Below are positions 55,331 to 56,533 of a DNA stretch of 64,000 bases, one piece after another. Position 1 is the stretch's first letter, and every line of letters starts with the position of its first letter. A model generated the notes under the pieces. It did not search any database, was not told the origin of the DNA, and saw nothing but the letters and a program-made list of their open reading frames with translations. The stretch comes from a virus (Duplodnaviria; Heunggongvirae; Uroviricota; Caudoviricetes), in the IMG/VR virus record IMGVR_UViG_3300025778_000009; one strand, 5' to 3'. The translations under genes were made by a program, and so were the position numbers.

Positions 55331-55745
55331 AAACTCAGAAGGCCGGCATGGTAAAAATGGTGCTAAAGGTGATGCTGGTGAAAAATTTGTATCTGAGTAT
55401 TTTGAAAAAAGAGGATTTGAATGGAAACATTTAAAAGATCCACACAGTCAGTATAATAGAGGTATAGATTTTATTGTTAATGGGTACCCTATAGATGTAA
55501 AAACAAATGGTAAGGAAAACACTCTTACTGTTGAATTGAAGAAAGAAGGCAAACAAGGTTGGCTTTATAAATCAGAAGCTGTATTTATTTTTGGTGTTGA
55601 TTTAAAGCAAAAAGAAATATATGTTTATAGATTAGTAAAAATGCGTGAATATGTTAAAGAAAATATTAATAAAGCTTACTATAGAGGTGATGATTTGTTA
55701 ATTAAAGTTCCTAAAACTTTAGAATTTATAAAAAGGTTACAATGA
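55314..55745 (+). CDS. PD-(D/E)xK nuclease-fold protein
   Basis: GEKFVSEYFEKRGFEW...GIDFIVNGYPIDVKT matches the E...D...(E/D)xK pattern of the restriction-endonuclease-like fold. Confidence 0.45.
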   Translation: MMVWYENSEGRHGKNGAKGDAGEKFVSEYFEKRGFEWKHLKDPHSQYNRGIDFIVNGYPIDVKTNGKENTLTVELKKEGKQGWLYKSEAVFIFGVDLKQKEIYVYRLVKMREYVKENINKAYYRGDDLLIKVPKTLEFIKRLQ

Positions 55746-56533
55746 AAATAGCACATGAAGCTCCTATAAGTATATTTCCTACAGTTCAGCTTATGACCGA
55801 TTATGATTATGCGCTGGTACATTTATTTGAATCTAATTTAATGTATTACCGCATGTTCAAGGATGCAGTGGTAAGCGGACGTGAAGTAATTCTTGATAAT
55901 TCTATTTTTGAATTAGGTACATCATTTGATGGTGATACTTATTTTAATTGGATTGAAAAGTTACAACCTACATGGTACATTATACCAGATGTACTAGAAG
56001 ATAAACAGGGCACTTTGGATAAAATGGATAATTGGTTATCTAAGTATAAAGTCTCTTCAAATATTAAATCTATTGGTGTTATTCAAGGTAAGACTTTTGA
56101 TGAGCTTGCTGAATGTTATTTAAAGATTGCTCCACGGGTAGATAAAATTGCAATCTCTTTTGATTACTCATACTATATAGAATCAACAAAAGATATTAAT
56201 CCTACTAGCAAATACGCTGCATGGATGTTTGGTCGTCAAGCATTGTTAGAGGATTTACTTGCTGATGGTATTATAGATACTAACAAGCCCCATCATTTAT
56301 TAGGTTGCGCTTTACCACAAGAATTCTCTGCCTATAAAGACTATAAGTGGATTGACTCTGTTGATACTTCTAATCCTGTAGTACACGGGTTAAATGGTAT
56401 ACATTATACTTCTAATGGCTTAGATAGTAAAATTTCTACTAAGCTTATTGAGTATATGAACGAACAAGTAACCGATATACAACTTGGTATGGTTAAATAT
56501 AATATTGAAAAATTTAGAGAGTTTTGTAATTGA
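55742..56533 (+). CDS. dpdA: DpdA-like (tRNA-guanine transglycosylase fold) protein lacking the zinc subdomain; candidate DNA 7-deazaguanine transglycosylase
   Basis: NKPHHLLGCALPQEF...IDSVDTSNPVVHGLNG parallels the TGT core KPRYLMGVGKPEDL...DMFDCVMPTRNARNG. ILDNSIFELG lies at the position of the DSGGFQ substrate pocket. The gene sits inside the preQ gene cluster. Confidence 0.55.
   Translation: MKIAHEAPISIFPTVQLMTDYDYALVHLFESNLMYYRMFKDAVVSGREVILDNSIFELGTSFDGDTYFNWIEKLQPTWYIIPDVLEDKQGTLDKMDNWLSKYKVSSNIKSIGVIQGKTFDELAECYLKIAPRVDKIAISFDYSYYIESTKDINPTSKYAAWMFGRQALLEDLLADGIIDTNKPHHLLGCALPQEFSAYKDYKWIDSVDTSNPVVHGLNGIHYTSNGLDSKISTKLIEYMNEQVTDIQLGMVKYNIEKFREFCN

Follow-up and report, generated by a model that had tools for sequence, protein, structure and literature searches.

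We propose that the gene at positions 55742-56533 (+ strand) of the 64,000-nucleotide stretch of viral DNA analysed here (the window) encodes a DpdA3 guanine/7-deazaguanine transglycosylase of an uncultured T4-like phage, which would exchange bases in DNA after replication by a double-displacement reaction; we give this reading a probability of about 60%. The product, a 263-residue protein modelled as a minimal TGT-type TIM barrel without a zinc subdomain, is by sequence a member of the DpdA3 group of phage guanine transglycosylases, a compact relative of TGT, and it probably helps to replace the guanines of the phage DNA with a formylated 7-deazaguanine.

The open reading frame runs from ATG to TGA exactly as a preliminary description of this DNA had it, and on the evidence of its homologues it is a real gene and not a chance reading frame, because 3942 of them are found at E<=1e-3, the family has 3328 representatives at 50% clustering and an identical protein is carried by 18 metagenomic contigs. 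That description had seen in the product a candidate DpdA-like DNA transglycosylase, pairing two of its motifs with motifs of TGT. Both are present, KPHHLLGCALP from residue 182 and IDSVDTSNPVVHGLNG from residue 204, and the pairing is recovered by phmmer (query residues 178-226 against 253-300 of Z. mobilis TGT 4q8n, E 0.54), by NCBIfam tgt_general over the same region (E 0.029; its 13.2 bits fall well short of the 47.6 cut-off) and by hhalign (E 4e-5 and 9e-5), matches that are singly weak and mutually consistent. Also borne out are the missing CxCxxC zinc site, the query having only three cysteines (125, 189 and 262), and a length about 100 residues below that of bacterial TGT (112 fewer than the 375 of E. 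coli TGT). The protein is acidic (pI 4.9; family median 5.3), and net charge and pI did not discriminate as a proxy for DNA binding, since E. coli TGT and the DpdA1 of phage 9g are acidic too.

The DpdA3 group was named in 2023 by Cui/Hutinet, with phiST CGPG_00065, CP220-type proteins and the DpdA3 of Flavobacterium phage immuto as founding members and with remote homology to PF01702, detected by HHpred, as its original definition (PMC10516641). The query has significant, full-length homology to these founders: tblastn gives 57% identity to immuto over 100% of the query (E 2e-86; BLASTP E 3e-102), 37% to CP220 (E 1e-42) and 24% to phiST over 92% of the query (E 9e-8), and PHROG 19058 matches as well (E 9e-47). 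All three share with it a length of about 260 residues and the invariant motifs LDNS, PD, HLLG and S-x-DTS, and the phiST model resembles it closely in structure (TM-score 0.84 normalised to the query). Two further marks of the group are found, namely phage genes for 7-deazaguanine synthesis (FolE, QueD and QueE, with QueC and QueF as optional members) and remote homology to TGT and DpdA. The first reading as a DpdA-like enzyme is supported, its action on DNA being predicted; the accompanying suggestion of a new DpdA subfamily was rejected because of the 57% identity to the annotated immuto protein. What does differ is the phage, a separate, uncultured and T4-like one known from metagenomic contigs only, with T4-like markers around its que cluster; when positions 50000-60000 were compared with phage records by megablast, no deposited phage matched.

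The link from the query to TGT and DpdA is visible by profile-profile and structural comparison only, plain HMM searches having failed. Pfam TGT (PF01702) gave no match to the query at E<=0.1, and 9g DpdA1 likewise escapes it; phmmer and hmmsearch with the query, the family profile and a DpdA1 profile found nothing significant among PDB sequences. A small TGT profile was built from phage TGT genes retrieved by tblastn, and the tblastn search of phage records with E. coli TGT returned true TGT genes alone, without any DpdA. Against the single 9g DpdA1, and at default settings against a DpdA1 alignment, hhalign of the family profile aligned the N-terminal LDxS motif only; a broader family alignment and a low mact gave a weak, near full-length alignment to DpdA1 (E 5e-4, probability 32%). 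The predicted structure has the (beta/alpha)8 TIM-barrel core of the TGT type, the fold first assigned to it from its motifs, and Foldseek matches it to bacterial TGT with probability 1.00 (E. coli b0406, Z. mobilis PDB 1q2r and others; TM-score 0.62-0.68 normalised to the query). We consider it improbable that this likeness is generic barrel similarity and the protein a TIM-barrel enzyme that serves the pathway in some other way, or a partner without catalysis of its own, as QTRT2 is in eukaryotes.

In bacterial DpdA (bDpdA; Salmonella Montevideo, PDB 7ui4), which inserts preQ0 into DNA as part of the Dpd restriction-modification system, a 413-residue chain carries the insertions Ins1, Ins2, Ins3 and a 128-residue Ins8, the last pinned by a CxCx2Cx22H zinc site, and the enzyme needs the DpdB ATPase (PMC10164549). 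The query, with 15% identity to it, has none of the insertions that make up the positive DNA-binding crescent of bDpdA: the loops after its strands 1-3 have only a few residues, its beta8-to-alpha8 segment has about 36 against 128, and neither the query nor any of 270 family members holds the CxCxxC motif of the TGT/bDpdA site, CxCx2Cx(22-25)H, that pins the large beta8/alpha8 insertion. Nor did the cluster yield a recognisable gene of the DpdB type. Loss of the zinc site was considered as a distinguishing feature and rejected: the motif was not found in nine phage DpdA1/2 sequences either, and therefore the site defines TGT and bDpdA, not the phage DpdAs. Like the query, the DpdA1 of Enterobacteria phage 9g (9g_00003, 317 aa) and related DpdA1/2 proteins are compact and zinc-free, and 9g DpdA1 shares with it, in a relationship seen at profile level only, an LDS/N...F motif, a signature histidine and an S-x-D-S/T-S nucleophile motif. 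Weak matches to DpdA4 (Pfam DUF6610; Halovirus HVTV-1 HVTV1_69), over the HLLG...D region, were obtained from CP220 (E 5e-3) and Youna2 (E 1e-3), and none from the query in a Pfam search; these sequence matches suggest that DpdA3 and DpdA4, the latter described as specific to archaeal viruses (PMC10516641), are neighbouring minimal branches.

Two aspartates would carry the chemistry, and their conservation had been set beforehand as a check on the assignment; both are kept in 260 of 260 relatives. Asp52 (codon 55895-55897, + strand; motif ILD52NSIF56E), the proposed general acid/base, lies at the C-terminal end of strand 49-52, and hhalign to the DpdA1 profile pairs the query ILDNS with FLDSG, which places it on D72 of 9g DpdA1 (FLDSGAF). 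In TGT and DpdA the acid/base aspartate has a base-stacking aromatic four residues on (D102/Y106 in Z. mobilis TGT, D95/F99 in bDpdA), as D52 has in F56, with the same D-x3-F/Y spacing as D95/F99; position 56 is F in 232 and Y in 22 of the 260 relatives. From motif and strand position, not from superposition, we infer that D52 is the equivalent of bDpdA D95 and of E. coli TGT D89 (with F93). Asp208 (codon 56363-56365, + strand; IDSVD208TSNP), the proposed nucleophile for a covalent deoxyribosyl-enzyme intermediate, stands at the end of strand 204-208 and takes the place of the superfamily's nucleophilic aspartate, matching D264 of E. coli TGT by phmmer and hhalign and D215 of 9g by hhalign, with D280 of Z. 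mobilis TGT and D256 of bDpdA as further equivalents. Asp83 (codon 55988-55990, + strand; IIPD83VLED), a putative guanine-recognition residue that follows strand 78-80, is kept in 259 of the 260 and is paired by hhalign with 9g D114; strand order, not direct alignment, would make it TGT D143 (E. coli) or D156 (Z. mobilis).

The fourth of these positions, His185 (codon 56294-56296, + strand; KPHH185LLG), is present in every one of the 260 relatives and is paired by hhalign (HHLLG with VH196GFG) with His196 of 9g, the signature histidine described for DpdA, which is absent from DpdA2 and is a tyrosine in TGT (PMC6884629). It bears on the possibility that the enzyme acts not on DNA but on host or phage tRNA in the manner of a queuosine- or archaeosine-type tRNA-guanine transglycosylase. 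Foldseek matches to tRNA TGT are equal in quality to the DpdA match, one database source names the family member P0119 'queuine/archaeosine tRNA-ribosyltransferase', and bacterial TGT, at 12-14% identity, has in common with the query its fold, the aligned motifs IIQG, KPxxLxG and ID-x-x-D and the proposed double displacement. However, the zinc-pinned insertion with which TGT touches the anticodon stem-loop and the other tRNA-binding insertions are lacking, histidine replaces the tyrosine of KPRY, close homologues reside in phages whose DNA was found by experiment to be fully substituted with 7-deazaguanine (PMC10516641), and QueA, QueG and QueH, which complete queuosine, were not seen in the cluster. 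We regard a tRNA substrate as very improbable.

The surrounding genes, all on the + strand, supply the remaining evidence. Upstream stand a QueE-like radical-SAM enzyme (CDG synthase; 51568-52458), weakly matched by Pfam Radical_SAM and Fer4_12 and positioned as QueE is in immuto, QueD of the PTPS family (52712-53233; Pfam PTPS E 4e-16), an NADPH-dependent FMN reductase/flavodoxin-like protein within the que cluster (53233-53934; FMN_red E 1.4e-15) and FolE, GTP cyclohydrolase I (53946-54677; E 4e-39). The preliminary description had set the gene between nucleases and a formyltransferase inside a que cluster: the que genes, the formyltransferase and an HNH endonuclease between FolE and DpdA3 (54977-55330; HNH E 1.4e-5) stand, whereas for the presumed second nuclease, a 143-residue ORF (55314-55745), no family matched significantly; the stop of this ORF and the start of DpdA3 share the overlap ATGA. 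Relatives hold other small ORFs between FolE and DpdA3.

Directly downstream, the TTG start of a 178-residue DpdN-like formyltransferase of the PurN family (56530-57066; Formyl_trans_N E 3e-8; 39% identity to immuto DpdN, E 8e-40) overlaps the DpdA3 stop by 4 nt (TTGA), and natural fusions of DpdA3 with a formyltransferase occur in the family members P0145 and P0223. An 84-residue protein consisting of DUF3310 only (57050-57304; E 2e-12) fills a slot that in relatives and in immuto holds a P-loop nucleotide kinase of about 180 residues; PHROG 'nucleotide kinase' families match it through their C-terminal part only, and a DpdA3-DUF3310 fusion is found in P0261. There follow a bimodular QueF (57267-58235; QueF_N E 2e-27, QueF E 2e-21), which would reduce preQ0 to preQ1 and whose start a gene caller sets about 27 nt downstream (313 aa), as in the called gene of L020; QueC, the preQ0 synthase (58235-58981; E 3e-53); and, directly after it, a stand-alone class-II (Ntn) glutamine-amidotransferase-like protein beginning MCSIIG (58981-59610; PHROG 12378 E 2e-37; Pfam GATase_6 E 5e-5, under the curated cut-off), whose homologues adjoin QueC in large Vibrio phages. 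The cluster ends with a dCTP-deaminase/dUTPase-fold protein (59607-60122; Pfam DCD E 9e-17; NCBIfam dUTPase E 5e-23, under the curated cut-off), possibly a dNTP pyrophosphatase.

FolE, QueD, QueE, QueC, QueF, DpdA3 and the overlapping DpdN match the cluster of immuto, which makes formyl-preQ1 DNA (PMC10516641). The query cluster departs from the known DpdA3 cluster in having a flavodoxin-like gene in the place of a phosphoribosyltransferase, the DUF3310 stub in that of the kinase, and the extra Ntn-amidotransferase-like gene.

By analogy with TGT and bDpdA, the enzyme would work by double displacement: Asp52 would protonate the leaving guanine, attack of Asp208 on C1' of the deoxyribose would link sugar and enzyme in a covalent intermediate, and a 7-deazaguanine base made by the phage would then displace the enzyme, in a pocket that may be lined by Asp83, Gln115 and the H185-L187-G188 segment. 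The base would be supplied by FolE, QueD, QueE and QueC as preQ0 and converted to preQ1 by QueF, and DpdN would add a formyl group to the free base or after insertion. Because the base would be made by the surrounding que genes and formylated by DpdN, we predict that most or all guanine of the phage DNA is replaced by 7-(formylamino)methyl-7-deazaguanine (fdPreQ1), as happens in immuto, a change that could protect the DNA from restriction.

The same family and base exchange could operate on another acceptor, a free deoxynucleotide such as dGMP, before replication, as T4 does with hydroxymethyl-dCTP. In this scheme dGTP would first be broken down to dGMP by a pyrophosphatase of the cluster; on the mononucleotide, DpdA3 would put preQ1 or formyl-preQ1 in the place of guanine; and once kinases had restored the triphosphate, the phage polymerase would build it into DNA. 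We hold this route to be possible but unlikely. Its attraction is that in the DpdA3 phages tested 100% of G is replaced, in contrast to <0.1% for bDpdA, 0.1-30% (as preQ0, at specific motifs in some phages) for DpdA1 and a range of <0.1% to about 30% for the DNA-acting bDpdA, DpdA1 and DpdA2 together (PMC10516641), and that DpdA3 is the most stripped-down barrel, without the insertions that form the DNA-binding surface of bDpdA; DpdA1, however, is a DNA modifier and equally compact and zinc-free. Other DpdA3 members gave negative results in heterologous DNA-modification tests in E. coli (PMC10516641), cells infected with CP220 were found to contain the ADG nucleoside, and an earlier proposal had Campylobacter phages use a modified-dGTP route (PMC10516641, PMC6884629). 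The authors who defined DpdA3 nevertheless prefer and propose post-replicative insertion into DNA (PMC10516641), and in the literature searched nothing later than the 2019 and 2023 papers deals with how DpdA3 works or with pre-replicative synthesis of 7-deaza-dGTP.

All lineages examined carry an NTP-pyrophosphatase-type gene along with DpdA3: in phiST and L024 it is MazG-like, immuto has an NTP pyrophosphohydrolase, CP220 an HD domain, and the window, like L025 and L026, a DCD/dUTPase-like gene. In CP220, immuto, L024 and L026 DpdA3 is flanked by P-loop nucleotide kinases, and in the last three of these the cluster also includes a phosphoribosyltransferase. The pyrophosphatase and kinase neighbours keep the pre-replicative route alive. 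In the window, however, the kinase slot holds a DUF3310 stub only and neither a phosphoribosyltransferase nor MazG was found in the cluster, and large phages often have dUTPase/DCD-like genes and kinases for reasons that have nothing to do with such a pathway. Two further points count against exchange on the nucleotide: we know of no TGT-superfamily enzyme that acts on mononucleotides, and the T4 glucosyltransferases, which are post-replicative, can reach complete modification. Base exchange in DNA after replication remains our preferred reading.

To a specialist the finding as such will not be surprising, the DpdA3 kind being already known; what is new is a T4-like lineage, uncultured, whose formyl-preQ1 cluster is of the immuto type. 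With 7-deazaguanine in their DNA, phage genomes withstand many restriction enzymes, and DpdA3, predicted by HHpred and linked to complete guanine replacement, is the least understood of the insertion enzymes, in a family of about 3,300 clusters at 50% identity that is yet without a Pfam model. Mutagenesis could be guided by the invariant set of D52, D83 (259/260), R165, H185, L187, G188, D208 and N254. Whether DpdA3 modification is post- or pre-replicative is a testable question, made sharper by the pyrophosphatase and kinase genes that recur near DpdA3; were the latter true, base exchange on a free deoxyguanosine nucleotide would be without precedent among TGT-fold enzymes, and it would explain both why complete guanine replacement is confined to DpdA3 phages and why DpdA3 failed in plasmid-modification assays.

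The ORF at 55742-56533 (+), the query below, runs from ATG to TGA and encodes 263 amino acids, and the opposite strand carries many stops at this position. Its ATG shares bases with the stop codon of the preceding ORF (ATGA), and its TGA with the TTG that opens the following formyltransferase gene (TTGA), an arrangement that suggests translational coupling; GC content across the cluster is even, at ~33%. The protein matches 3942 proteins at E<=1e-3 in a collection of 5.8 billion sequences, the family profile matches 3328 representatives of 50%-identity clusters (442 of them at E<=1e-30) and an identical protein is encoded on 18 metagenomic contigs, the longest of 229 kb, so the gene is clearly under selection. 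The motifs that the preliminary description had read as those of a tRNA-guanine transglycosylase (TGT) are present, KPHHLLGCALP starting at residue 182 and IDSVDTSNPVVHGLNG at residue 204, and its estimate that the protein is about 100 aa shorter than bacterial TGT compares with a measured 112 aa relative to E. coli TGT (375 aa).

The proposal of a TGT fold was put to structure prediction, using an AlphaFold2 model whose input alignment had 77 sequences (mean pLDDT 96, pTM 0.92, every segment at least 70). The predicted topology comprises eight alternating strand/helix units, and the best 50 Foldseek matches in the PDB are all TGT structures (best E 4.7e-8 with probability 1.00; query-normalised TM-scores of 0.62-0.68 at 12-14% identity), so that the model supports the proposed fold. 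The nearest entries in a viral structure library are a protein of an uncultured phage (0.93) and CGPG_00065 of Cellulophaga phage phiST (0.84), with the nt-1 protein and other phage ‘queuine tRNA-ribosyltransferases’ ranking below both.

Conservation was counted over 260 aligned family sequences, the distant phiST, Youna2 and MA9V-3 included. All of them have D52, R165, H185, L187, G188 and D208, while D83 and N254 are each retained by 259. Q115 is kept by 242 sequences, 16 having His instead, and F56 by 232, 22 having Tyr; neither candidate catalytic aspartate, D52 or D208, has therefore been lost. In the model, D52 (strand 49-52), D83 (78-80), Q115 (109-114), L187/G188 (184-187) and D208 (204-208) lie at or just past the C-terminal ends of consecutive barrel strands, in the same strand order as TGT residues D102, D156, Q203, M260/G261 and D280 in Z. 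mobilis numbering, the E. coli equivalents being D89, D143, Q187, M244 and D264. Alignment of the family with a small TGT profile using hhalign (E 4e-5 and 9e-5, probability 60-70%) pairs VIQG with IIQG, KPHHLLGC with KPRYLMGV and IDSVD with IDMFD, placing D208 on the nucleophile, and phmmer recovered the same TGT-matching stretch. A low-confidence part of this alignment sets the C-terminal helix against the TGT helix that bears the zinc-binding His, so that Y253-N254 faces H333-N334.

We also used hhalign to align the family, over nearly its full length, with a profile built from nine DpdA1/2 proteins of phages (9g, Iggy, CA8, a Stenotrophomonas phage, BcepGomr, RHEph04, ZHS, Dp-1 and Bipper), in which query residues 16-262 correspond to 9g 30-296 (E 5e-4, probability 32%) and D52 pairs with 9g D72 (FLDSGAF), D83 with D114, H185 with H196 and D208 with D215. 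His196 of 9g has been described as the conserved DpdA histidine (PMC6884629), whereas TGT has Tyr at this position. In bacterial DpdA, mutagenesis shows D95 and D256 to be essential, and the base is sandwiched by F99 and L236 (PMC10164549). The D-x3-F spacing of D52/F56 agrees with that of D95/F99, and the stacking Leu precedes the nucleophile by a nearly equal distance, 21 residues (L187 to D208) against 20. We infer that D52 and D83 are equivalent to the TGT and bacterial DpdA residues.

As previously described, the CxCxxC...H zinc site is absent: the query has three Cys (125, 189 and 262) and no CxCxxC motif, and the insertion of TGT bearing this motif is missing from the family in the low-confidence C-terminal part of the hhalign alignment with TGT. 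None of the nine DpdA1/2 sequences (266-350 aa) contains CxCxxC either, which rules out zinc-site loss as a trait special to the query; the zinc site and a large Ins8 mark TGT and bacterial DpdA and are no general property of phage DpdAs. The shortest form is DpdA3, in which ~36 residues separate strand 8 from the last helix.

A Pfam search of the query did not match the TGT family, NCBIfam tgt_general scores 13 bits (cut-off 47.6) and the matching PHROG, 19058 (E 9e-47), has no function label. The query falls outside canonical TGT and bacterial DpdA, lacking the zinc site, the insertions and an HMM score that reaches the threshold. Among deposited phages, tblastn places Flavobacterium phage immuto first (57% identity), followed by Campylobacter CP220-type phages (37%) and phiST CGPG_00065 (24%). 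It was from these proteins that Cui, Hutinet and colleagues named the new subfamily DpdA3 in 2023, predicted through an HHpred match of CGPG_00065 to PF01702 (98.8% probability) and associated with full guanine replacement, by dADG in CP220, dDG in phiST and 7-(formylamino)methyl-7-deazaguanine (fdPreQ1) in immuto (PMC10516641). Because its best deposited-phage homologues are these three proteins, the query is, on sequence relationship, a DpdA3 member; of the suggestion that it was a minimal or new subfamily, minimal holds and new does not. By analogy with TGT and bacterial DpdA, it would work in their manner. The CP220 and Youna2 homologues match DUF6610, the DpdA4 family, weakly, which suggests two minimal branches, DpdA3 and DpdA4, lying side by side.

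The window was unmatched by megablast against deposited phages; its UvsY, UvsW, gp47/gp46-like nuclease subunits, gp45 clamp, gp44/62 clamp loader and RegA genes identify it, at the sequence level, as T4-like. Between gp46 and gp45 lie, in order, peptide deformylase, QueE, QueD, a flavodoxin-like FMN reductase, FolE, a 70-aa ORF, an HNH endonuclease, a 143-aa ORF, DpdA3, the PurN-family formyltransferase DpdN, a DUF3310 protein, QueF, QueC, an Ntn-amidotransferase-like protein and a DCD/dUTPase-fold protein. The gene does therefore sit inside a que cluster, with que genes on both sides and DpdN overlapping its stop. DpdN shares 39% identity (E 8e-40) with the formyltransferase of immuto, on which the name was defined (PMC10516641), and the cluster order agrees with that of immuto and recurs in three metagenomic relatives with DpdA3 proteins ~55-57% identical to the query. 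fdPreQ1 has been measured in immuto DNA (PMC10516641), and given the full preQ1 pathway and DpdN we predict fdPreQ1-bearing DNA here also. Two cluster representatives (P0145 and P0223; 447 aa) are DpdA3-formyltransferase fusions and one (P0261) a DpdA3-DUF3310 fusion; these could conceivably be frameshift artefacts, given the 4-nt overlap of the unfused genes. Two longer representatives, P0129 (475 aa) and P0125 (586 aa), carry one a C-terminal NUMOD3, a homing-endonuclease DNA-binding motif, and the other an unassigned 317-aa N-terminal extension.

The upstream "nucleases" of the preliminary description, inserted between FolE and DpdA3 (54977-55745, +), were half right, being the HNH endonuclease and the 143-aa ORF, which is unassigned and only loosely PD-(D/E)xK-like (IDF...IDVK). 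Since relatives have other small ORFs here, the gap has the look of a variable site of insertion, perhaps a mobile one. The QueD-FolE gap holds the NADPH-dependent FMN reductase (53233-53934, +; Pfam FMN_red, E 1.4e-15) where immuto and the metagenomic relatives L024 and L026 have a phosphoribosyltransferase; the flavodoxin-like protein might supply electrons to radical-SAM QueE. Directly after QueC is the stand-alone class-II (Ntn) glutamine-amidotransferase-like protein (58981-59610, +; 209 aa, start MCSIIG). Phage 9g QueC has an N-terminal Gat domain, which leads to archaeosine (G+) DNA; in the window protein, resemblance to 9g Gat-QueC is limited to the first ~40 residues (E 0.01). Homologues at 32-40% identity are encoded by large Vibrio phages, where they adjoin QueC, and by Pseudomonas phage pf16, and none was found in immuto. 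The phage may accordingly produce an additional derivative, or its QueC may take nitrogen from glutamine. Peptide deformylase (50879-51358, +; Pfam E 1.7e-36) adjoins the cluster and keeps this position in all metagenomic relatives examined. A 359-aa ORF (49144-50223, +; 352 aa as called on metagenomic contigs), which precedes a cupin gene and the que cluster and is unmatched in Pfam, NCBIfam and PHROGs, has a PP-loop-like motif, SGGIDS, the ATP-pyrophosphatase signature of QueC and asparagine synthase.

The best-supported reading is a TGT-type double-displacement base exchange, in which D208 would be the nucleophile and D52 the acid/base, preQ1 or formyl-preQ1 being inserted and guanine displaced. 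The 2023 authors proposed post-replicative insertion for DpdA3, and their attempts at activity in E. coli failed (PMC10516641); an earlier proposal for Campylobacter phages had modified dGTP synthesised. We put insertion at the DNA level at a probability of about 0.6. Exchange at the nucleotide level, a pre-replicative route through modified dGTP, is less likely but a live alternative: 100% replacement is seen in DpdA3 phages only and DpdA3 is without the insertions that build the DNA-binding surface of bacterial DpdA. Moreover, every lineage examined has an NTP-pyrophosphatase-type gene near DpdA3: an HD domain in CP220 (L007 6868-9361), an NTP pyrophosphohydrolase in immuto (L001 8279-11002), a MazG-like protein in phiST (L008 6564-8726) and L024, and a DCD/dUTPase-like protein in the window (59607-60122), L025 and L026. 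P-loop nucleotide kinases accompany DpdA3 in CP220, immuto, L024 and L026, in the last three as a ~180-aa protein (AAA_28/‘thymidylate kinase’) between DpdN and QueF (L001 10478-11002; L024 9310-9846; L026 9322-9867), and immuto, L024 and L026 also have the phosphoribosyltransferase. The recurring pyrophosphatase-type neighbours would fit a route in which dGTP is excluded and the exchange takes place on nucleotides. However, the window has no phosphoribosyltransferase and its kinase slot holds only the DUF3310 stub (57050-57304, +; 84 aa), as does that of L025 (78 aa), DUF3310 matching the C-terminal part of PHROG ‘nucleotide kinase’ families; large phages in any case often carry nucleotide-metabolism genes, and DpdA1, compact and zinc-free, acts on DNA. 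A tRNA or other role takes up the probability left over by DNA-level insertion and nucleotide-level exchange. The CP220 gene is flanked by an HD/P-loop protein and a ‘thymidylate kinase’. In Weizmannia phage Youna2 (L009 5950-8734), a Bacillota phage, a distant DpdA3-like gene (26% identity) follows QueC, QueD, QueE and FolE and overlaps the start of a family-A DNA polymerase gene; DpdA3 is also near a polymerase gene in phiST and immuto.

A specialist would recognise the query at once, and a known subfamily gains one further example. What it adds is a view of how large this uncharacterised family is, which residues never vary in it, and a neighbourhood pattern that bears on whether DpdA3 phages modify their DNA after or before replication.
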